A DNA stretch of 64,000 nt from Escherichia coli. Lineage in GTDB: Bacteria > Pseudomonadota > Gammaproteobacteria > Enterobacterales > Enterobacteriaceae. The stretch is from NCBI RefSeq assembly GCF_013315695.1, contig NZ_CP054353.1. One strand, written 5' to 3'. This document shows positions 2,093 to 14,831 of the stretch, one piece after another (position 1 is the first letter of the stretch; every line of letters starts with the position of its first letter). Both the position numbers and the translations under genes were made by a program. The notes beneath the pieces were generated by a model. The model was given only the letters and a program-made list of their open reading frames with translations. It ran no database searches and had not been told where the DNA came from.

Positions 2093-2555
2093 GTTTTACT
2101 CCCGCAGCTCTGCGCTGCCACTTCTTCAGTTTCTCAATAACACTGCTTGCCTGTTCAGTATTGAGCCAGCGCAGGGCGCTGATGCCCGTTTCCCGCTTGA
2201 TCCACCGCGCTAATGCATTTTCTGAACGGTCACGAACAATGCCGGCAGCAGCCATTTCAAGCCATAGCGCACGGATTTTCCTGGACTGCGGATGGTTATC
2301 CAGCGGTAAACCGGAGCTGGCTTTTCTGGCAGGCTTAACGCGAAAGCCTTTCCTTTTCATGGATTCCAGCACGCAGTTTAGTTGTGTGGTATCCATTCCT
2401 TTGGTTGAGGCTTTACCGGTCAGCCCCTGTAACATCTGGCGGTAGGTGTCTTCATCCATACCCAGTTCATTACGGGCAATATGAATGAGCTGGATAAGAC
2501 GTTGTTTAGTCATCATCGTTGCTCCTTTTACCTGCGCCACCGATATAATCGACAT
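2064..2555 (-). CDS. GemA-like protein (Mu gp16 family)
   Basis: 163 aa ORF directly upstream of the mor-like gene on the same strand; sequence resembles Mu GemA/gp16-type proteins as recalled. Confidence 0.6.
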   Translation of the reverse strand: MSIISVAQVKGATMMTKQRLIQLIHIARNELGMDEDTYRQMLQGLTGKASTKGMDTTQLNCVLESMKRKGFRVKPARKASSGLPLDNHPQSRKIRALWLEMAAAGIVRDRSENALARWIKRETGISALRWLNTEQASSVIEKLKKWQRRAAGVKHERPESVSK

Positions 2556-2877
2556 ATAAAGGAAGCGCCACAGGCCAGCACAGGAACATCACCGACCAGC
2601 TAATCCAGTAGCCGGCACCACTGTAACGTGAATAAAACCCTGAACGGCGGTGCAGTTCAGCAGTACACCAACCGACAAAACAATACCAGAACAGGGCACA
2701 TACAACAGATTCAGCCGTCATTCTGAATATCCCCCCAACTGATATGAATATTACGGGCAGCAATGACAGGGTCGTTATTCCACCATGCACCTGACATGTA
2801 TTTTTCAACCTGTTCGCGTCCGGCAATAACACCAATTGTGATCCCCGGCCTGACGTTCTTAAAAAAGGCGCGGGCAA
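2506..2877 (-). CDS. Small hydrophobic protein; true start probably the internal Met near 2721
   Basis: Track ORF 123 aa; C-terminal 71 aa (MTAESVVCALFWYCFVGWC..WSVMFLCWPVALPLYV) has two hydrophobic helices; the N-terminal part overlaps ORF 2711..2941 in another frame. Confidence 0.3.
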   Translation of the reverse strand: MPAPFLRTSGRGSQLVLLPDANRLKNTCQVHGGITTLSLLPVIFISVGGIFRMTAESVVCALFWYCFVGWCTAELHRRSGFYSRYSGAGYWISWSVMFLCWPVALPLYVDYIGGAGKRSNDDD

Positions 2878-2941
2878 AAAGGTATCTGGCAGATATTCGG
2901 CAGGCTTTTAATTTCCGGCTGTTACCTGATAGCGTAATCAT
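2711..2941 (-). CDS. Hypothetical small phage protein
   Basis: 76 aa ORF tightly packed between neighbours in the early operon; no recognisable motif. Confidence 0.3.
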   Translation of the reverse strand: MITLSGNSRKLKACRISARYLFARAFFKNVRPGITIGVIAGREQVEKYMSGAWWNNDPVIAARNIHISWGDIQNDG

Positions 2942-3657
2942 CTGGCCTCCAGTTTCTGTTGTTCCTGCCCACTGACCGGGCGGTGCAGTCTGACGTTCTG
3001 CCCTTCACGAAACCCCGCATAGCGCGAGGCGTCGCCATTGCGGCTTCTTCCCGGTTTACGCGCCCTGGTGGTTTGCGTCTGCGGGTATTTATGTTCCAGC
3101 CACTGCTGCATCAGTTCACGCTCATCATCGGTCAGGGCAAAGGACTGTATTTCACTGATAACGGCCAGCACCCAGCCTTCGGCAAACTGGTCTCCACGGC
3201 TGGTGCGGGTGGCGGTTTTTATTCTTTTGTTCTGTGCACTGATATACTGCTGACGCGCCTTTTTCAGCTGACGGGCCAGCACTTCCCAGGTGTATGCAGC
3301 CAGTGCCGCACGTTCCCGGTTGCCGTAGAACCCCACAGACGGGTGCGTGCCGGGGTGAATGATGGAGTTAACACCAAATACCTCGCGGATGATGTTCATC
3401 AGGCCCAGCATGTAGCGCGGTGGACGGAGACTGCCTGTCGGCCAGTAGTGACTGATGGTTTCATCAATATCACTCATAGCAATGTCGGAATGTGTGATGC
3501 CGTGAACATCCATCAGTTTACGGGCTCGGCGCAGTGCCAGAGCGGCCTCGTGCGGGTTGCCGGATGCGGCCAGCGCCAGCAACTTTTTCAGTTTCTCAAT
3601 GTGTTTATTCTGGTCTGTCATTGTTCTGTATCTCCGGTATTTTTCTGCCGTTTCCAT
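2938..3657 (-). CDS. Hypothetical early protein, DUF2786-like N-terminal region
   Basis: 239 aa; N-terminal KLKKLLALAASGNPHEAALALRRARKLM resembles the DUF2786 motif common in Mu-like early regions (from memory). Confidence 0.55.
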   Translation of the reverse strand: METAEKYRRYRTMTDQNKHIEKLKKLLALAASGNPHEAALALRRARKLMDVHGITHSDIAMSDIDETISHYWPTGSLRPPRYMLGLMNIIREVFGVNSIIHPGTHPSVGFYGNRERAALAAYTWEVLARQLKKARQQYISAQNKRIKTATRTSRGDQFAEGWVLAVISEIQSFALTDDERELMQQWLEHKYPQTQTTRARKPGRSRNGDASRYAGFREGQNVRLHRPVSGQEQQKLEAR

Positions 3658-4714: not shown

Positions 4715-5245
4715 TTACTGCACATCCTGCTCAAAAGGAATTATTGAAAAATCCTCAATGTCGCTTTTAATGGAAATACCGGGAATATTTTTCACGGCCT
4801 CTTTTTCATTCAGAATGGCATCTTTATTTATTTCCTCCTTTACACGAATAAAGCGCTCAAGCCCCAGACGTCTCAGCAGTTCAATGACATTATCCGCCCC
4901 GCGAATGCTGACTGACGGCGGACGGTTTCGCCACTGCACCTCGCCGGTGGTGAGGTTAGCGAACTTCACCTTCCCGTTGCCGGTCAGTTCATCACGGTGC
5001 GCCTCACACCATGTCTGGATACCGGACTGCAGTTCGGCCATGCGTTTTTTCAGGCTCTCGGTGAGCGGGGCATAACGTGCAGTGATGTCGCCAATGGTGT
5101 CATTCATTTCTGTTTCAGCCCTGACCAGTTCACGTTGCGCGTCACCAAGCAGTCTGATTCCCTCAATGACCTCTTCGCGTGTCCCCGGCACCCAGAGTGC
5201 TGCTGCGGCTTTGATACGTTTTGCCCCTTTTGTACTTTTTGCCAT
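4715..5245 (-). CDS. gam: Gam-like host-nuclease inhibitor (DNA-end binding, Ku-like)
   Basis: 176 aa; strong resemblance to Mu Gam as recalled (AKRIKAAAALWVP.., ..CEAHRDELT.., ..RPPSVSIRG.., ..IEDFSIIPFEQ). Confidence 0.85.
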   Translation of the reverse strand: MAKSTKGAKRIKAAAALWVPGTREEVIEGIRLLGDAQRELVRAETEMNDTIGDITARYAPLTESLKKRMAELQSGIQTWCEAHRDELTGNGKVKFANLTTGEVQWRNRPPSVSIRGADNVIELLRRLGLERFIRVKEEINKDAILNEKEAVKNIPGISIKSDIEDFSIIPFEQDVQ

Positions 5246-5272
5246 ATTTTATGACTCCTCCTGTTGTGCTGA

Positions 5273-5542
5273 TTACCACAAAGATTCCGGCCACACGACG
5301 CGACAGCCGTGCAGTTCGAAAACGCCCTGACGGAAATATCCCCTGTGGTCATGTCCGGTATACAGATAACAGGCCTTTCCCTGCTCAAGCATGCGCATGC
5401 AATGCGCACTCCGGGAAACGCGGATGACAGGTTTGTTACCCCTGATGGTGATGCTTTGTACATCCGTGTTCGTCGCCTTAAGCGCCATAATGGCTGACTG
5501 CACTTTGCTGATTTGCTGGTTGATACCTGTGGTGGATTTCAT
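5273..5542 (-). CDS. Hypothetical early protein
   Basis: 89 aa ORF immediately downstream of the transposition ATPase gene. Confidence 0.4.
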   Translation of the reverse strand: MKSTTGINQQISKVQSAIMALKATNTDVQSITIRGNKPVIRVSRSAHCMRMLEQGKACYLYTGHDHRGYFRQGVFELHGCRVVWPESLW

Positions 5543-5544
5543 TA

Positions 5545-6750
5545 TTAAACCCCTTTGACAACGTCAGCGTTGACCTGTGGAACCCCGATTTCAGCGGCCA
5601 GATTCATGGCGGCTATCACCAGGTTACTGACGGCCAGCGGATACAGCAGGCTGACCATATTTTTACGATGACTTCCCGGATTGCTCAGGCGGGCACGTAT
5701 GGCATCCACTGCGCTGGCGTCCATAATGTCCGTCAGTTGTTTACCGGCCCGTTGCAGTTTGAACGTCAGAAATTCTTCAAGGTTATTGTCCAGAGGCAGA
5801 AGTTCGACCACCTCACAACGCTGAACGACTTCACGGACTTCCATATTGCGTTCAGACAGTTTTGTCGCCAGTTCCGGCTGGCCAATCAGCACGATGGACA
5901 GCAGTTTTTTGAAACCGGACTCCAGCTCAAAAAAGCGTTTGAGGTGTTTCAGTGTCGGAATGGGCAGACTGTGGGCCTCCTCAATCACCAAAACGTGGCT
6001 GAACCCCGCCTGGCTGCTGTCTTTCAGGACGCGATGCAACTGGCGAAAGCGGGCGTCCTGACTGCGTCTGATGCTTTCCAGTGGTGCGATGGTACTGATA
6101 ATGGCTTCGGCAATCGCTGCTGCCTTCAGGGTTTTCCCTTTCACATCGTTGTCTTCCATAGCGATGATGTATGGCTCGATAACAATTACCGGCGCATTCT
6201 CGCGGTTGATACGTTCAGTCAGGTCGCGGCGCAGCGTGGATTTACCCGCACCGGACTCACCGATGACGGCCATAAACCCACCATGACGGGCTGTCTGGTA
6301 CAACGCCTCACGCACGTAGCGAATGTCCGGGGTGGTGAACACATCATCAGAACCCTGCATGGCTTCATCGGCGAACGGGTCACGGAAAAGACCAAACGCT
6401 TTTTTGGTTGCTGGAAATAACACCTGTTTTTTGAGTAACATATTCTCTTCCTCACTGAGGCTCGTTTTATCTGTGGTACCCGCTGTACGGGGCGTGGCTG
6501 CGCCCTGTACAGCATCAAAACTCTTCGTTGTATCAATCCCCTGACTTTCCAGCCAGGACGCAAGACGCCGGCGCACTTCTCCGGGGCTGGTGCGGGGCCA
6601 CGCGTTATGATTCACAATCTGGGCCAGCGTGGCCTCAGAAACATCGACAGCTCTCGCCACCACCGCCTGTGGGATACGGGCCTCTTTCAGTTGCTGCTTC
6701 AGTACCAGCATGTTTTCCTCCTCAGTTGCCGTTAACAATGCTGATAACAC
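5545..6750 (-). CDS. Transposition ATPase (AAA+; functional analogue of Mu B / TniB-like)
   Basis: 401 aa; Walker A GESGAGKST and Walker B-like HVLVIEEAH; N-terminal HTH-like segment; directly downstream of the transposase. Confidence 0.85.
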   Translation of the reverse strand: MLSALLTATEEENMLVLKQQLKEARIPQAVVARAVDVSEATLAQIVNHNAWPRTSPGEVRRRLASWLESQGIDTTKSFDAVQGAATPRTAGTTDKTSLSEEENMLLKKQVLFPATKKAFGLFRDPFADEAMQGSDDVFTTPDIRYVREALYQTARHGGFMAVIGESGAGKSTLRRDLTERINRENAPVIVIEPYIIAMEDNDVKGKTLKAAAIAEAIISTIAPLESIRRSQDARFRQLHRVLKDSSQAGFSHVLVIEEAHSLPIPTLKHLKRFFELESGFKKLLSIVLIGQPELATKLSERNMEVREVVQRCEVVELLPLDNNLEEFLTFKLQRAGKQLTDIMDASAVDAIRARLSNPGSHRKNMVSLLYPLAVSNLVIAAMNLAAEIGVPQVNADVVKGV

Positions 6751-8491
6751 TGCTGCGTGCCGGCGTGGTCAGCGTGGCCATGACTTCATCCAGTGCAGCT
6801 TCCGGTACGCCGTCCGGGTACTGTGCCGTTAACTGGCGGTAATGTTCCGGCGTCCAGGTAAGGCCGTCGGCGCTGAACTTATCGCGCAGGGCTTTCGCGG
6901 CCTCCACATGAGTCATGGGACGTTGTTCAGTGCGCGGCCCGCGTACGTCAGAGGCCTGACCACGCTTCGGCATATAGGCCGGAAGTGTGGTGTCGTCGAT
7001 ATGTTTATACGGGTCAAGCCGCCCGCCGAACGGCAGCGCCTTCGCCTTGCGTGCGGCGGCTGCATCTGCGGCGTTGTCTGTACCGGTAACCAGCGCTTCA
7101 GTTTCTTTTGCCGCCATCTGTGCCGAGGTTTCCGGCAGGGCTTTGTAACTTTCGCCAAATACCGCCGCGCCTTCAGCAAAGCCAAACTCGTTCTTTCTGA
7201 CCTCTTCGACCAGGAAGAACGTCTCGTGGCCGTCCTCACCGGTCAGAACCACCTGTGCCACATCGCTGCGCCATGGGTTACGGGTAATCATCAGTTTTTC
7301 ACCAACCAGTACGCCCGGTACCGTTGATACGTCAAATTCAGTGCCCCGGAACGAGACACGAAGTTTTGGCGTGACTTTGCGGAGTTCTGGTGCCGCCACA
7401 GCCAGTTCACGACATACCTCAACGGAAGGCGCTTTTTTCAGCTGCTCAGCAGTAATCTTCAGCCAGATATCCGTGCGGGTTTTACCGTGGCGGCTGTGAA
7501 CAGCCGTGGCGTTAAAGTGGCTGCGCCATTTCGCGGCCAGCGCGTTGAGTTCTTCCAGACTGTGAACCGGCCGGAACTTCAGCCCCGGCTCCAGCTTGCG
7601 TTCGATAATGTCACGCGCCTTTTCCACCTGTCCGGTGGCGCGGGCGTTATGCGGCTTGTGCGCTATCAGGTCGATGCCCAGTGAGCGGCACATGTTTTTC
7701 GTCATACCCGCGGTGTTTGCCGAGCCGGGGTCGAGATAGAGTATTTTCGGCACGCCGTGCAGCACGTCTGCGCCGCCACGCTCCTGCATGGCGTTGATAA
7801 GCACAGAGCACAGGTTCTCACCTGATTCCGCGCCCGTCACATACTCAACGTAAATCCAGCCGCTGGCATGGTCGGTAATCTCGTAACTCCACACGCGGTC
7901 ACTGGCGATACGGGCAAGGTTAGCGGGCTTGTTCTTGTAGAACTTCGCGCTGTCCATCACCTGCAGCCCTTTATGTCCATTGCTCAGGTAGTAAAGCGTG
8001 CAGAGTGAGGCGTCAATCTGCCAGACATGATTGGGATGCAGACTGGCCACTTCGGTATGTGGTGCAGGGGCATCCAGTTGTTCCGGGTGCAGGCCATAGT
8101 TACGCAGAGCACGGCTGATGGCATCTTCAGACAACGGGAAAAACTCACTGGTGGTTTCATCTGTTCTGCCTGCGGTGATAAAGCCGTTAGCCCGCAGGGT
8201 TTCCACTGCATCTGCGATGGAATAGAGACGCTTACCGTTCTTGCGGGTGGCCTCACGCAGTGTGGCAGATATCAGCGCGGCTTCGTCGCGGGTCAGGGCG
8301 CTGCGCCCGGCATCGGCGCGTTTTTTGCGTTTATCAGTCACAGAGACCTCCTTCAGCCTGCGCAGCAGAGTGGCGCGGGACATGCCAAGTTCAGCACAGG
8401 CAGCGTCGTATATTGCACCGCGTTTACCATGCCCCGCGTCACGTGCCGCGCGGGCGACATAAACCAGTCGTTCAGTCAGGGCAGCATTCAT
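6722..8491 (-). CDS. DDE transposase (Mu A-like, integrase-core fold)
   Basis: 589 aa; N-terminal HTH, central HVWQIDASL-type DDE core; paired with an AAA+ ATPase gene as in transposable phages. Confidence 0.85.
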   Translation of the reverse strand: MNAALTERLVYVARAARDAGHGKRGAIYDAACAELGMSRATLLRRLKEVSVTDKRKKRADAGRSALTRDEAALISATLREATRKNGKRLYSIADAVETLRANGFITAGRTDETTSEFFPLSEDAISRALRNYGLHPEQLDAPAPHTEVASLHPNHVWQIDASLCTLYYLSNGHKGLQVMDSAKFYKNKPANLARIASDRVWSYEITDHASGWIYVEYVTGAESGENLCSVLINAMQERGGADVLHGVPKILYLDPGSANTAGMTKNMCRSLGIDLIAHKPHNARATGQVEKARDIIERKLEPGLKFRPVHSLEELNALAAKWRSHFNATAVHSRHGKTRTDIWLKITAEQLKKAPSVEVCRELAVAAPELRKVTPKLRVSFRGTEFDVSTVPGVLVGEKLMITRNPWRSDVAQVVLTGEDGHETFFLVEEVRKNEFGFAEGAAVFGESYKALPETSAQMAAKETEALVTGTDNAADAAAARKAKALPFGGRLDPYKHIDDTTLPAYMPKRGQASDVRGPRTEQRPMTHVEAAKALRDKFSADGLTWTPEHYRQLTAQYPDGVPEAALDEVMATLTTPARSSVISIVNGN

Positions 8492-11545: not shown

Positions 11546-12136
11546 GTGATGAACATGGCAGGGATTCAGGTTATCGCAGGAAGTTTTCCTAAAGGGTGGG
11601 CAAGCATGGGGTTCGGTACCATCGTGTTTGCCAAAAAAACAAAACAAGGCTTTCCTGAAAATATTGTATTAAATCTGAAAGAAGAGCTTTTATCGATTGA
11701 ACTTGCGGATAGTGAAGAGGAAAGCCGTATAGGTAAGGCGGCAGGCGCAGGTTTGCTTGGTGGATTAATCTTTGGTGGTGCAGGGTTGGTCATTGGAGGT
11801 TTGCTTGGTGCGGCGGACAAGACGAAAAAAACTATCACTTTTAAGGCAATGTTTACGGGAAATAGGTTACTTCTGGCTAAAACAGATTCAAAAACTTTTG
11901 TAAAACTTCAGTCAATTGCTGCTGATAATGCCCATAACGCATCTGTAATCAACATGAAGCAAACTAATAGGGGCGATGTTTCTTCTCGTAAACAACTAAC
12001 AGAAAATCCACAGCAGCAAGACTTACCTGCGCCCGCTACAACAGTAAAAATGACTGCCAAAGATAAGTTAGAATCGGCTCTTGGGCTGGGAATCATCGTT
12101 ATAGCTGTTTGGGCAATAATACACTTCTTTTTTTAG
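11546..12136 (+). CDS. Hypothetical membrane protein with glycine-zipper segment and C-terminal hydrophobic anchor
   Basis: 196 aa; GAGLLGGLIFGGAGLVIGGLLGAA and C-terminal LGLGIIVIAVWAIIHFFF; possible RBS aaaggtga upstream. Confidence 0.5.
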   Translation: MMNMAGIQVIAGSFPKGWASMGFGTIVFAKKTKQGFPENIVLNLKEELLSIELADSEEESRIGKAAGAGLLGGLIFGGAGLVIGGLLGAADKTKKTITFKAMFTGNRLLLAKTDSKTFVKLQSIAADNAHNASVINMKQTNRGDVSSRKQLTENPQQQDLPAPATTVKMTAKDKLESALGLGIIVIAVWAIIHFFF

Positions 12137-12173: not shown

Positions 12174-12650
12174 TTAAGGATTATCCGGGGCGTTTTCCTG
12201 TTTGCCGTACTTCGGAGACGAACAACATTCTGTTGGCTGACCGGTGAGTTTACGTAACTCCTTCATGAGCAGCTCCTGATCGTAAACTGTCATCAGTGCC
12301 GCAATGGTGGCATGCAGTGCATCGGGCAGTATCCAGGGTTGCCGGCCCGTGGGGCATATAACATCCAGCAGCTCATTCGTCCGACAGATACGCTCCTCGC
12401 CGTATGACAACAGGCCCTGTCCCGTGTATTCCTCTAGCCTGATCACTGTGCCACCCCGTGGCTTCTGCCAGGTCGTCAGATCTTCGCCATTCATACGGCG
12501 CTCATTCTCCACGTCAGCAGCATCGACAATGACGCTGTTTCCGAGTTCCTGTTTCACCATCTCTTCTATCCGCGCCAGTACGTAACTTTTACCGCTGCCC
12601 ACAGGACCGGACACAGTGACAGTGATGACCGGATTCAGTGTGTGCGTCAT
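12174..12650 (-). CDS. Small P-loop NTPase / kinase-like protein
   Basis: 158 aa; Walker A GPVGSGKS at residues 15-22; convergent with the preceding membrane-protein gene. Confidence 0.55.
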   Translation of the reverse strand: MTHTLNPVITVTVSGPVGSGKSYVLARIEEMVKQELGNSVIVDAADVENERRMNGEDLTTWQKPRGGTVIRLEEYTGQGLLSYGEERICRTNELLDVICPTGRQPWILPDALHATIAALMTVYDQELLMKELRKLTGQPTECCSSPKYGKQENAPDNP

Positions 12651-12747: not shown

Positions 12748-13131
12748 GTGATGCTGTCTCCACCAAACGAGGAGACACACATGAAAAACCTGAAAAAATT
12801 CATTCCCCCTGTTAAAAAACCTCGCCTCAGCGGCTGGCTGCTGACCTCAGTGCTGTTGCTGGGCACCATCGCTCTGGTCTCACCACAGCAGCTGCCTGTT
12901 GTGATCTACAAGCTGGCACTCATCACGCTGGCAGCAGTGCTGGGTTACTGGCTTGACCGTTCGCTCTTCCCCAAAGCCCGTCCCGGTCAGTACCTGAAAC
13001 ATGACGACAGGCTGATGGCTGAAGGGCGTTTCCCGGTACAGACCGGCCTTCACCTGGTGTTTTCTGCTGCGTTAATCCGCCGTGCACTGATTGTTGCAGC
13101 GGTCTGCCTGGCTGTTGCGATGGGGCTTTAA
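12748..13131 (+). CDS. Putative holin / small membrane protein upstream of the endolysin
   Basis: 127 aa with 2-3 hydrophobic helices (LLTSVLLLGTIALV, LALITLAAVLGYW, LIVAAVCLAVAMGL); position immediately before the endolysin gene. Confidence 0.45.
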   Translation: MMLSPPNEETHMKNLKKFIPPVKKPRLSGWLLTSVLLLGTIALVSPQQLPVVIYKLALITLAAVLGYWLDRSLFPKARPGQYLKHDDRLMAEGRFPVQTGLHLVFSAALIRRALIVAAVCLAVAMGL

Positions 13132-13133
13132 TC

Positions 13134-13874
13134 ATGAACTGGCCGCAGATCACCTGGATTGTATGCATGTCCCTGAAACTGGCTTTCGAAGCCTTTCGGG
13201 TCTTCATCAGAACCGAACGCCTGTCAGTCCGCGCCGGGACCTTTCTGGTTCATATGGCATGGGTATTCTTTGTCGCAATGTTGCTCTGGTGTGGCGGCTT
13301 TTTCAGCCAGGCATGCGCAGCACAACCTCCGCAGGCTGCGCTGCAGTATCGCGATGATGTGATCCGTAATGCCCGGCTTGAATGGGGACTGTCTGCGCCG
13401 GTGGCCGATTTCGCCGCGCAACTGCATCAGGAAAGCGGCTGGCGACCTGATGCGATCTCGCCGGCTGGCGCTCAGGGACTGGCGCAGTTCATGCCTGCCA
13501 CTGCCGACTGGATAAGCCAGTTGATACCGATGCTGAGCAGTCGTGAGCCGTTTAATCCGGCATGGGCTATCCGGGCGCTGGTCAGCTATGACCGCTGGCT
13601 GTGGCAGCGTGTCAGCGCCGCCAGTGACTGCGAGCGTATGGCCATGACACTGTCGGGCTATAACGGTGGTCTGGGCTGGGTACAACGGGACAGGCGGCTT
13701 GCATCACAGAAAGGTCTGGACAGCACCCGCTGGTTCGGACATGTCGCCACGGTGAATGCCGGACGCAATGCGGCCAGCTGGCGGGAGAACCGCCATTATC
13801 CGCAGCGCATCCTGCGCGAACTGGCACCGCGATATCTCACATGGGGAGGCAGCAGTTGTGTGGCATCTGGTTAA
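13134..13874 (+). CDS. Endolysin, lytic transglycosylase (SLT domain), possibly signal-anchored
   Basis: 246 aa; SLT-type motifs QLHQESGWRPDAIS, GAQGLAQFMPAT and SGYNGG; an N-terminal hydrophobic segment may mean a later start around 13254. Confidence 0.8.
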   Translation: MNWPQITWIVCMSLKLAFEAFRVFIRTERLSVRAGTFLVHMAWVFFVAMLLWCGGFFSQACAAQPPQAALQYRDDVIRNARLEWGLSAPVADFAAQLHQESGWRPDAISPAGAQGLAQFMPATADWISQLIPMLSSREPFNPAWAIRALVSYDRWLWQRVSAASDCERMAMTLSGYNGGLGWVQRDRRLASQKGLDSTRWFGHVATVNAGRNAASWRENRHYPQRILRELAPRYLTWGGSSCVASG

Positions 13875-14508
13875 AAAGCTGCCGTGGCGCGGCATTCTGC
13901 TGGCCATTCTTATCAATGCCTTTCTGGTCGGCCTGTATGCCATGGGATACAGAAGTGGTCATGACTCTGCAAAGCGTGACGGTGATACCGCGCTCAGTCA
14001 GTTGCAGTCAGCATTTGACGCGTACAAAACGGAGCAGGCAACGCTTGAGAATGCTGCGCTGCGGGCCTGGGCCAGACGGTATCAGGAGCAGGTGGCCGCC
14101 GGGCAGCGGGCTGAAGCCGGTTATCTTGAGCAGATTGCTCAACTGGAGAGCCGGAACAAACAACTACAGGGGCAAATTAACGATGTCACACAGCGCTGGA
14201 TTGATGAAAAAGGTAAGAGTCATCCCATTGAGTGCGTGTTTACTCGCGGTTTCGTGCGCCAGTACAACGCCGCACTCGGGTATGACAACGCATCTGTCGA
14301 CACCGGTCATTCAGACTCAGTTGCCGCCACTGGCACCCGCTCTGGCACAGCGACCGGGCAACCTGAAACCACTGACACCCGGTTACGCGATTCGGGTGTC
14401 TCCCAGCGTGACGTTCTCGCCAACATCATCGACAACGCAGGACAATGTCGTCGCTGGCGGAACCAGATAAACGCGTTACTGGATGAACGGGAAGGATTAC
14501 AGAAATGA
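13858..14508 (+). CDS. i-spanin (Rz-like), GTG start preceded by GGGGAGG
   Basis: N-terminal hydrophobic helix ILLAILINAFLVGLYAMGY followed by a coiled-coil-like periplasmic region; immediately after the endolysin. Confidence 0.6.
   Translation: MWHLVKKLPWRGILLAILINAFLVGLYAMGYRSGHDSAKRDGDTALSQLQSAFDAYKTEQATLENAALRAWARRYQEQVAAGQRAEAGYLEQIAQLESRNKQLQGQINDVTQRWIDEKGKSHPIECVFTRGFVRQYNAALGYDNASVDTGHSDSVAATGTRSGTATGQPETTDTRLRDSGVSQRDVLANIIDNAGQCRRWRNQINALLDEREGLQK
14204..14470 (+). CDS. o-spanin (Rz1-like lipoprotein) embedded in the +1 frame of the i-spanin gene
   Basis: MKKVRVIPLSACLLAVSC lipoprotein signal with lipobox Cys, followed by proline-rich PVIQTQLPPLAPALAQRPGNLKPLTP; entirely inside the i-spanin gene. 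Confidence 0.6.
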   Translation: MKKVRVIPLSACLLAVSCASTTPHSGMTTHLSTPVIQTQLPPLAPALAQRPGNLKPLTPGYAIRVSPSVTFSPTSSTTQDNVVAGGTR

Positions 14509-14831
14509 CACTGCAGGTTGAATTCTGGACGGTGGTGAGTTTTTTGCTCACCTTCATGGGGTTTGTGGGAGGGCTCGCCAAATGGTTGTTCAGTAAAACA
14601 GAAGAACGCCAGGCGGCACGATTCGCCTCTCTTGAACAGGCCCTGCAACAGTCCGCATCCAACTGGGGCGAGCTGGAAAAAGAATTTATGCGATTTAAAG
14701 CGGATTTACCGCTGAATTATGTCCGTCGCGAGGATTATATCCGTGGCCAGACAGTCATCGAGGCCAAACTGGACGCGCTTTATAACAAACTGGAAGTGGT
14801 ACAGCAGTACCGCAATACCGGAGGTCAATAA
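14505..14831 (+). CDS. Small membrane protein (Mu gp25-position)
   Basis: 108 aa; N-terminal hydrophobic helix VVSFLLTFMGFVGGLAKWLF; start overlaps the i-spanin stop. Confidence 0.45.
   Translation: MTLQVEFWTVVSFLLTFMGFVGGLAKWLFSKTEERQAARFASLEQALQQSASNWGELEKEFMRFKADLPLNYVRREDYIRGQTVIEAKLDALYNKLEVVQQYRNTGGQ

Follow-up and report, generated by a model that had tools for sequence, protein, structure and literature searches.

An embedded spanin pair of ordinary type in the lysis cassette of a BcepMu-like prophage of Escherichia coli

An Rz-like gene in the chromosome of Escherichia coli (contig NZ_CP054353.1, assembly GCF_013315695.1) raised the question of whether its +1 frame also encodes an outer-membrane lipoprotein, such that both subunits of a two-component spanin would be specified by one stretch of DNA. 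The window, i.e., the whole stretch of DNA that was analysed, is 64,000 nucleotides long, and all positions refer to it (Table 1). A BcepMu-like (Bcepmuvirus) transposable prophage has its lysis cassette at 12781-14508. The DNA of this segment was 100% identical to that of E. coli ST131 chromosomes, and prophages of this type occurred in 637 of the 5426 complete E. coli genomes (~12%), ST131 included. Phage PhiKM, a close relative, has been placed in Bcepmuvirus. The cassette runs from a holin (PF13272) through an SLT transglycosylase endolysin (PF01464) to the Rz-like i-spanin. Its genes overlap or abut, with the holin and SLT endolysin genes directly 5' of the i-spanin gene: the endolysin gene starts 2 nt past the holin stop, and the 5' end of the i-spanin gene overlaps the 3' end of the endolysin gene by 17 nt. 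The genes are translationally coupled within a late lysis operon. No sigma-70-like promoter was detected between 12100 and 15300, and terminator scans of the same region gave nothing above chance. The original prediction, made from the letters of the sequence, had proposed a lysis cassette with an o-spanin gene fully inside the i-spanin gene, preceded by an SLT-type endolysin and a putative holin. Both enzyme and holin were recovered by Pfam and PHROG models, the holin being 52% identical to the BcepMu gp21 holin, and the proposed o-spanin gene does lie entirely between the start and the stop of the i-spanin gene.

Table 1. Coordinates of the lysis genes, the adjoining gene and their main sequence features in the window.
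Feature	Position	Strand	Basis
Holin, 116 aa, three hydrophobic segments	12781..13131	+	PF13272 Holin_2-3 E 1e-41; phrog_1528 E 5.5e-55; hydropathy
SLT-type lytic transglycosylase endolysin, 246 aa	13134..13874	+	PF01464 SLT E 1.8e-14; phrog_669 endolysin E 9e-69
i-spanin (Rz-like), 216 aa, GTG start	13858..14508	+	phrog_1403 Rz-like spanin, E 4.8e-92
i-spanin transmembrane segment, residues 13-29, ILLAILINAFLVGLYAM	13894..13944	+	mean Kyte-Doolittle 2.45; within AlphaFold2 helix 10-118
o-spanin (predicted Rz1-like outer-membrane lipoprotein precursor), 88 aa, fully embedded	14204..14470	+	+1 frame
Lipoprotein signal peptide MKKVRVIPLSACLLAVS and predicted lipidated Cys18 (codon 14255-14257)	14204..14257	+	PROSITE PS51257-type rule
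BcepMu gp25-family membrane-tethered protein, 108 aa	14505..14831	+	phrog_462

The i-spanin gene is preceded, 8 nt 5' of its start, by the Shine-Dalgarno sequence GGGGAGG, and its product is identical to RefSeq WP_016234468.1, which is named 'lysis system spanin subunit'. BLASTP matched this product to ORF27 of phage B3 (3e-16) and to BcepMu gp23 (2e-9), and tblastn found matches in 57 B3-like and Ralstonia phages. Alignments with these relatives revealed the common motifs CVFTRGFVRxYNAALG and SGVxxxDVLA...QLNxLLD. The segment at residues 13-29 is the sole hydrophobic one and is preceded, on the cytoplasmic side, by K6, K7, and R11; the protein is therefore predicted to be a type II inner-membrane protein with its basic N-terminus in the cytoplasm (N-in/C-out). 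The AlphaFold2 model, whose overall pLDDT of 64.8 makes it usable for secondary structure only, contained a helix at 10-118 (pLDDT 83-92 over 11-100), a low-confidence linker at 140-182, and a helix at 183-214, a secondary structure that fits an Rz-like i-spanin. In the model, the periplasmic part would consist of a long helix (to ~118), a disordered linker (~140-182), and a C-terminal helix (183-214). Periplasmic cysteines that could serve homotypic intermolecular disulfides are available at C126, which is nearly invariant across the wider family, and at C197.

The embedded ORF starts at codon position 2 of the i-spanin frame [(14204-13858) mod 3 = 1], i.e., in the +1 frame, and spans 0.53 L-0.94 L of the i-spanin gene. 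It reads MKKVRVIPLSACLLAVSCASTTPHSG..., in exact agreement with the sequence quoted in the original prediction. The signal, MKKVRVIPLSACLLAVS followed by C, satisfied the PS51257-type pattern of PROSITE, positional rules included, at Cys18, and did so only with the start at 14204; the lipobox that had been proposed was thus recovered, and the product is predicted to be a lipoprotein precursor. The lipobox reads A-V-S-C, in which Ala at -3 departs from the [LVI][ASTVI][GAS]C consensus, and 'AVSC' did not occur in the part of the SpaninDB text that was searched. The predicted mature N-terminus is C-A-S-T, and the Ala at +2 is invariant in relatives; since this residue is Ala and not Asp, the o-spanin carries no inner-membrane retention signal. 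The mature protein of 71 aa has no Cys beyond the predicted lipidated one and includes 10 Pro, 12 Thr, and 8 Ser (14% Pro; P+S+T+A+G = 59%). The tail had been described beforehand as proline-rich; it is indeed rich in Pro, Thr, and Ser, but is not strikingly proline-rich.

The same embedded o-spanin might instead start at ATG 14183 (95 aa, MSHSAGLMKK...) and/or be lipidated at Cys12 rather than Cys18. The upstream ATG is in frame, occurs in every relative, and is preceded at 10 nt by an AGGGG motif, whereas the motif in front of ATG 14204, GCTGGA, is weak; however, the i-spanin codons N-D-V confound the conservation of ATG 14183. Cys12 is likewise invariant in relatives, and L-S-A-C is closer to the classical lipobox consensus than A-V-S-C. 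On the other hand, the hydrophobic core before Cys12 comprises only ~6 residues (VIPLSA) with either start, fewer than a signal peptide needs, and no combination besides 14204 with Cys18 satisfied the PROSITE-type rule. Furthermore, B3, JBD25, and RS138 each have a single lipobox Cys, and this aligned with Cys18, as did the Cys that SpaninDB uses for BcepMu (mature length 56 of 84). The longer form and Cys12 lipidation are quite improbable.

A lipoprotein pattern by itself would be weak evidence for an o-spanin. When the same rule was applied to all six frames of the window, ~15 distinct ORFs passed, a rate that predicts ~0.05 chance occurrences over both alternative frames of a gene of 651 nt. 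The +1 frame could also be untranslated, and be open and conserved merely through nucleotide conservation of the i-spanin gene and a G+C-rich composition that disfavours stops. The +1 frame is in fact open over 13841-14470 (209 codons), nearly the whole i-spanin gene, in the window and in the closest relatives, and gene callers never report the ORF at 14204-14470. The o-spanin ORF is nevertheless more than a chance pattern because it is conserved. The 88-codon ORF was kept, with invariant start, Cys12, Cys18, and stop, in 41/41 clean distinct relatives (i-spanins 70-100% identical), a set from which two sequences that had internal stops or shifted alignments were excluded. Among the 43 distinct relatives, the +2 frame of the i-spanin gene was full of stops, and the +1 frame 5' of 14204 contained stops in 34, whereas none was located within the 88 codons. 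Nucleotide diversity at i-spanin codon positions 1/2/3 was.157/.106/.284 upstream vs.111/.043/.097 in the overlap. Where the i-spanin amino acid was invariant, synonymous variation was found at 26/33 codons upstream vs 16/44 in the overlap (Fisher p = 2.4e-4), such p-values being approximate since the relatives are phylogenetically related. Suppression of synonymous sites was therefore specific to the overlap, and in i-spanin codons 135-165 the most variable position was the wobble position of the +1 frame. These patterns indicate that both overlapping frames are under purifying selection.

The frame was also retained at greater distance. Homologous +1 lipoproteins occur at the same relative position in BcepMu, B3, JBD25/TAB03, and RS138, of which the i-spanins are only ~30% identical, and still hold the same signal, Cys, and RP...PLxPxY. 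The o-spanins, including those of distant phages, have in common the motif C[AG][ST]TP...LPPxLxxRPxxxxPLxPxY, and in a six-sequence alignment M, R, L, L, T, P, L, R, P, L, and P were invariant, with the lipobox Cys (Cys18 in the prophage) aligned throughout. Absence of a predicted lipobox and loss of the embedded frame in related phages had each been named in advance as grounds for rejecting the prediction; the lipobox was predicted, the frame was kept in close and distant relatives alike, and an untranslated ORF is extremely unlikely. Phage-encoded outer-membrane lipoproteins with non-spanin roles exist, e.g., lysogenic-conversion or superinfection-exclusion lipoproteins of the Cor/Llp type, but such a role is scarcely credible for an ORF at 0.53-0.94 L of an i-spanin gene in a late coupled lysis operon, with homology to the annotated BcepMu Rz1 and in a cassette without any other o-spanin candidate (neighbours named 'lipoprotein' have no lipobox).

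The single N-terminal transmembrane segment, the helical periplasmic domain, the lipoprotein signal, and the conserved frame all agree with the embedded two-component spanin that was originally proposed. The pair is very probably a functional spanin of the embedded type and the last module of a holin-endolysin-spanin cassette, as judged from sequence comparison. By analogy with lambda Rz/Rz1, the precursor would be cut before Cys18 by signal peptidase II and then lipidated, and Lol would sort the o-spanin to the outer membrane because its +2 residue is Ala rather than Asp. The C-terminal regions of the two subunits would bind each other, giving a complex that crosses the periplasm via the meshes of the peptidoglycan. 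After holin triggering and breakdown of the murein by the SLT endolysin, the spanin complexes would be free to oligomerise and change conformation, and would then fuse the inner and outer membranes, removing the last barrier to phage release.

The two-component spanin and its embedded architecture were reportedly described by Summer in 2007. Embedded two-component spanins have been assigned to BcepMu/phiE255 and B3/JBD25/JBD18/JBD67, and embedded o-spanins typically extend from ~0.4-0.5 L to 0.9-1.0 L (Kongari et al., 2018, PMC6139136). The nearest parallel is BcepMu, in whose record (NC_005882; Summer et al., 2004) gp24 is annotated as 'Rz1, out of frame, embedded proline-rich protein'. BcepMu has the same order of genes (holin, SLT endolysin, i-spanin/+1 o-spanin, gp25, gp26, gp27 small terminase, gp28), and seven homologous genes shared 52, 61, 32, 38, 52, 57, and 51% identity with the prophage. 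The o-spanin matched gp24 at 38% over 63 aa (E 6e-4, database of 27 sequences), a weak match alone but one that is backed by position, which supports homology of the two proteins: the BcepMu o-spanin lies at 0.51-0.94 L in SpaninDB (Kongari et al., 2018, PMC6139136) vs 0.53-0.94 L in the prophage. The two differ in the sequence of the spanin subunits (i-spanins 32% and o-spanins 38% identical), in the lipobox (LSAC in BcepMu vs AVSC), in a periplasmic Cys that gp24 has and the prophage o-spanin lacks, in an extra N-terminal hydrophobic segment of the prophage endolysin that BcepMu gp22 does not have, and in host, BcepMu being a Burkholderia phage.

Outside the enterobacterial clade, ORF27 of the Pseudomonas phage B3 was the best i-spanin match (33% over 207 aa, E 3e-16). 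B3 has a +1 lipoprotein with the same place and motifs, as well as a two-segment endolysin N-terminus and a gp25-family gene; its +1 ORF as traced ends 7 nt past the annotated i-spanin stop. Unlike the E. coli prophage, B3, JBD25, JBD18, and JBD67 are siphoviruses of Pseudomonas. The prototype, lambda Rz/Rz1, has in common with the prophage pair the embedded +1 o-spanin, the topology of either subunit, and the last place in the cassette (Kongari et al., 2018; established knowledge), but shows no detectable sequence similarity to it. The prophage subunits are longer (216 and 88 aa vs 153 and 60 in lambda), the o-spanin contains less Pro (14% vs 25% in lambda Rz1), and it has no counterpart of the periplasmic Cys through which Rz1 forms a disulfide. 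Phage Mu, the gp23/gp23.1 spanin and gp25 releasin of which were described by Chamblee et al. (2022, PMC9239132), is also transposable and has the same downstream order of spanin, small membrane-tethered protein, gp26-like, gp27, and gp28. However, its o-spanin gene is overlapped rather than embedded, as the +1 ORF runs past the gp23 stop, and Mu is without a holin and uses a SAR muramidase as endolysin.

The embedded spanin pair of the E. coli prophage is thus real but ordinary, and is already explained. The only new points are that no record checked annotates the o-spanin and that the AVSC lipobox is slightly off consensus, which widens the range of lipoboxes seen in o-spanins. The o-spanin gene was absent from the RefSeq annotation and from the records of phages PhiKM and KP12, and searches of the 88-aa product against Pfam, PHROG, and NCBIfam models returned nothing meaningful. 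Neither the 88-aa nor the 95-aa form had an exact entry in a 15-billion-protein collection, and a homology search of that collection yielded 5 entries only, all fragmentary or frameshift-like. The finding therefore has little weight for biology and some for annotation, in that it illustrates how embedded genes are systematically missed by gene callers. Anything new could come only from two neighbouring parts, the N-terminus of the endolysin and the gp25-family protein.

The endolysin was 61% identical to BcepMu gp22 and 52% to B3 ORF25. Its N-terminus contains hydrophobic segments at residues 9-25 and 37-53, followed by ...FFSQACA/AQPP, an architecture that was kept in three sequence variants at 62 loci. 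All variants carry ...FFSQA[RCSH]A/AQP, an AxA-type site resembling that of signal peptidase. The proposal that the endolysin may be signal-anchored held in part: an N-terminal export or anchor region is present, but it is not SAR-like. A single N-terminal transmembrane segment that is weakly hydrophobic and rich in Gly/Ala/Ser/Thr is expected of the SAR (signal-anchor-release) class, whereas the prophage protein has two, of which the second is strongly hydrophobic (mean Kyte-Doolittle 2.19) and low in Gly/Ala/Ser/Thr (12%), vs 1.46 and 59% in the SAR domain of Mu gp22. Assignment to the SAR endolysins is accordingly not favoured on these sequence features.

The gp25-family gene shares an ATGA overlap with the i-spanin gene (translational coupling), and the 108-aa protein probably belongs to the cassette. 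It has an N-terminal transmembrane segment (residues 9-25) and a helical cytoplasmic domain, and was 52% identical to BcepMu gp25 and 42% to B3 ORF28, within a family of 1113 representative clusters (50% identity). Located two genes downstream of the endolysin gene, it occupies the same slot as Mu gp25 and the DUF2730 (PF10805) protein that JBD25 has in place of a gp25-family protein; in B3-like phages the two kinds of protein alternate at exactly the same locus. In size (~100 aa), N-terminal transmembrane topology, and position within five genes of the endolysin, it corresponds to a releasin. Homology to DUF2730 releasins was, however, unsupported: single-sequence Pfam searches gave no PF10805 match for the 108-aa protein, BcepMu gp25, or B3 ORF28, none of 24 family members matched, 2 of 106 gave sub-threshold matches (E at least 0.025), and profile-profile comparison of the family with DUF2730 (hhalign) gave probabilities of 1.4% and 8%. 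Its identification as a DUF2730 releasin is thus not supported, as position, size, and topology alone agree. It is a tentative and rather doubtful possibility that the SLT endolysin is exported or tethered by its two-segment N-terminus and that the 108-aa protein is its releasin-like regulator; if this were true, the cassette would work in a hitherto undescribed way, with releasin-type control alongside a holin, and control of that type would be much commoner than is currently assumed. Two UniRef names in the gp25 family include 'DUF2730', although those proteins do not match PF10805, and both the i-spanin and the gp25-like protein are often misnamed 'lipoprotein' in records.

The i-spanin gene, a GTG-start ORF of 216 codons with a Shine-Dalgarno sequence (GGGGAGG) 8 nt upstream, entirely contains a second ORF of 88 codons that runs from an ATG at 14204 to a stop at 14470. 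Because (14204-13858) mod 3 = 1, this ORF lies in the +1 frame, and its translation begins with MKKVRVIPLSACLLAVSCASTTPHSG..., as quoted in the original prediction, which had placed a short lipoprotein inside the Rz-like gene. Thr, Pro, and Ser abound in the predicted mature o-spanin (71 aa, of which 10 are Pro; P+S+T+A+G = 59%). It matched nothing in any of the profile libraries searched and is unannotated in the RefSeq, PhiKM, and KP12 records. The exact 88-aa or 95-aa sequence was absent from a collection of ~15 billion proteins, which contained only five fragmentary look-alikes.

The lipoprotein signal was assessed with a PROSITE PS51257-type rule (the pattern, a Cys at position 15-35, and Lys/Arg among the first seven residues), which is satisfied only with the start at 14204 and Cys18 (PLSACLLAVSC). 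The lipobox predicted earlier in the embedded frame was thus recovered at Cys18, and the controls BcepMu, B3, JBD25, RS138, and lambda Rz1 also passed. Less probably, Cys12 may be lipidated instead of Cys18, or translation may start at 14183 instead of 14204: the residues up to Cys12 form a perfect L-S-A-C box, although only ~six hydrophobic residues precede it, and the in-frame ATG at 14183 is conserved. With lipidation at Cys18, the lipobox would be A-V-S-C, in which Ala at -3 falls off the narrow [LVI] consensus; an AWAC lipobox is functional (Kongari et al., 2018; PMC6139136). Residue +2 is Ala, and outer-membrane sorting of the o-spanin is therefore expected. The rule did not select the i-spanin or its 108-aa neighbour; these two proteins, neither of which has a lipobox, are often called "lipoprotein" or "putative lipoprotein" (PQ738613, OM835952, NC_005882, NC_006548), and the real lipoprotein is missing from the annotation of E. 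coli and Klebsiella records. The lipobox scan also picked up a bona fide-looking lipoprotein gene (MKKLAIAGALMLLAGC...) far downstream, which is probably a host gene because it lies well past the last phage-type gene identified (tail-fibre assembly).

The lipoprotein pattern by itself is not rare, since the same rule applied to six frames of the window returned ~15 distinct ORFs, or ~0.05 expected in two frames of 651 nt; support for the embedded ORF comes from comparison. The comparison set drew i-spanins 70-100% identical from 58 IMG/VR loci and from records of phages and genomes, giving 43 distinct nucleotide sequences, of which 41 were counted as free of internal stops or alignment shifts. 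All 41 kept the 88-codon ORF, as expected from the original prediction if the frame is conserved in relatives, with Met1, Lys2, Lys3, Arg5, Cys12, Cys18, and the stop invariant. The +1 frame has no stop for 209 codons (13841-14470) in the window and in the relatives nearest to it, beginning ahead of the i-spanin start; stops upstream of 14204 in 34 of the 43 sequences indicate that maintenance is confined to the final 88 codons. The +2 frame contained many stops in all sequences. Nucleotide diversity at codon positions 1/2/3 was.157/.106/.284 upstream of the overlap, a normal single-frame pattern, and.111/.043/.097 within it, where the third-position excess was gone; at codons 135-165 variability was highest at the wobble position of the +1 frame. 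Of the codons with an invariant amino acid, 26/33 upstream but only 16/44 within the overlap varied synonymously (Fisher p = 2.4e-4, an approximate value given the relatedness of the sequences). Both frames are under selection. In one IMG/VR locus (IMGVR_UViG_2734481909_000003, ~2501-3136), a nonsense codon was found near i-spanin codon 199 (CRI*RSQ) and the embedded o-spanin frame was intact.

The i-spanin has a single transmembrane segment (residues 13-29) preceded by a basic N-terminus. In its AlphaFold2 model, used for secondary structure only on account of a mean pLDDT of 64.8, residues 10-118 form a long helix (pLDDT 83-92 between residues 11 and 100) and residues 183-214 a C-terminal one, with a linker of low confidence between them at ~140-182. 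Most of the stretch shared with the o-spanin gene (codons 116-204) encodes this linker, the part of the i-spanin where a second frame is cheapest. The i-spanin is ~30% identical to the Rz of Pseudomonas phage B3 and relatives and of Ralstonia phage RS138, and, in the C-terminal half, 32% identical to BcepMu gp23, with the common motifs CVFTRGFVRxYNAALG and SGVxxxDVLA...QLNxLLD. In BcepMu, B3, JBD25/TAB03, and RS138 alike, the CVFTRGF motif is where a +1-frame lipoprotein begins, at the same position as here; it aligns with the o-spanin, with the lipobox Cys in register and the common motif C[AG][ST]TP...LPPxLxxRPxxxxPLxPxY. The BcepMu counterpart, gp24, is annotated "Rz1, out of frame, embedded proline-rich protein", and the entire gp21-gp28 block is collinear with the window. 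Embedded two-component spanins include (BcepMu, phiE255) and (B3, JBD25, JBD18, JBD67), and the o-spanin of BcepMu spans 0.51-0.94 of its i-spanin (Kongari et al., 2018; PMC6139136), compared with 0.53-0.94 here. With architecture, topology signals, homology to annotated spanins, and a place in the lysis operon established, and selection acting on both frames, the pair is supported as a standard two-component spanin of the embedded type, which belongs to a family already covered by the BcepMu annotation and by SpaninDB; the original prediction had observed correctly, and its interpretation is upheld. By analogy with lambda Rz/Rz1 (Kongari et al., 2018, and work cited there), the two subunits would bridge the periplasm between the inner and outer membranes and would fuse these membranes once the holin has triggered and the SLT enzyme has degraded the murein. 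Only two points are new: a gene that annotation has missed in a very widespread E. coli prophage, and a lipobox that is a little out of the ordinary.

Features of the prophage and its surroundings in the window
Feature	Coordinates	Strand	Match or name
Transposase, B-type transposition protein, Gam	4715-8491	minus	
Regulators, lysis genes, gp27-type small terminase, large terminase, head and tail genes		plus	PF11985 (small terminase)
Unknown-function gene	11546-12136	plus	phrog_12025
Unknown-function gene	12174-12650	minus	phrog_3787; RefSeq "ABC transporter ATPase"
Holin	12781-13131	plus	PF13272, E 1e-41; phrog_1528
SLT lytic transglycosylase endolysin	13134-13874	plus	PF01464; phrog_669 endolysin
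Endolysin codons 1-65	13134-13330	plus	
Rz-like spanin (i-spanin)	13858-14508	plus	phrog_1403, E 4.8e-92; RefSeq now "lysis system spanin subunit"
Embedded o-spanin	14204-14470	plus	
108-aa neighbour	14505-14831	plus	
Tail-fibre assembly	36228-36842		
Lipoprotein gene, probably host	45113-45529		

The lysis region is part of a Mu-like transposable prophage. Its 2.2 kb were found in 637 of 5426 complete E. coli genomes, with 100% identity in O25b:H4-ST131 chromosomes, and Escherichia phage PhiKM (classified in Bcepmuvirus) was 99.2% identical. The putative holin and SLT-type endolysin upstream of the spanin gene were confirmed by Pfam and phrog matches. The genes are tightly packed: 2 nt separate the holin stop from the endolysin ATG, the i-spanin GTG overlaps the 3' end of the endolysin gene by 17 nt, the i-spanin stop and the next start overlap as ATGA, and the junction after that reads TAATG. 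Two genes of unknown function lie immediately before the holin, one of them on the strand opposite to the lysis genes; since PhiKM and KP12 carry other genes there, the spot is possibly one for variable cargo or morons.

The N-terminal 60 residues of the endolysin comprise two hydrophobic segments with a basic loop between them and end in LLWCGGFFSQA[RCSH]A|AQP; among 62 loci this region came in three sequence variants, all identical in layout. The enzyme is predicted to be exported by Sec and may then be cleaved, tethered, or released. The suggestion that the enzyme may be signal-anchored was half right: the N-terminus holds an export signal, but the second segment, strongly hydrophobic and poor in Gly/Ala/Ser/Thr, is unlike the Mu gp22 SAR domain, and the AxA site suggests possible cleavage. 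B3 ORF25 has the same two-segment N-terminus, whereas BcepMu gp22 and the JBD25 enzyme have a short single signal only. In phage TAB03 (= JBD25; 1125-1754), the lipoprotein rule accepts Cys16 in the N-terminus of the endolysin (MKRLLTLGLLGLLSAC), so that JBD25-type endolysins, a group treated as SAR endolysins by Chamblee et al. (2022; PMC9239132), may by sequence be lipoprotein-anchored.

The 108-aa neighbour, translationally coupled to the i-spanin, has an N-terminal transmembrane segment and a helical domain, whose invariant core is YVRREDYxRGQxxIEAKLD, and belongs to the BcepMu gp25/B3 ORF28 family (1113 representative clusters). In Mu, the same slot is held by gp25, a DUF2730 "releasin" without which the SAR endolysin of Mu is not freed (Chamblee et al., 2022; PMC9239132), and in the B3-like phage JBD25/TAB03 by a true PF10805 protein (E 4.6e-9) included in Table S1 of that study. 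Homology of the 108-aa protein's family to DUF2730 was not detected with Pfam (0/24 members; 2 weak matches among 106) or hhalign (probabilities 1.4% and 8%). The protein is possibly a functional analogue of the releasin, the analogy being one of position and architecture only. An apparent prophage remnant in Salmonella Infantis SARB27 (2150-3372; records note LT2 tags STM4212-STM4219) lacks the i-spanin/o-spanin pair. It retains genes for a small membrane protein, for an SLT endolysin that lacks the long N-terminus, and for a member of the gp25 family, with tail genes coming directly after.
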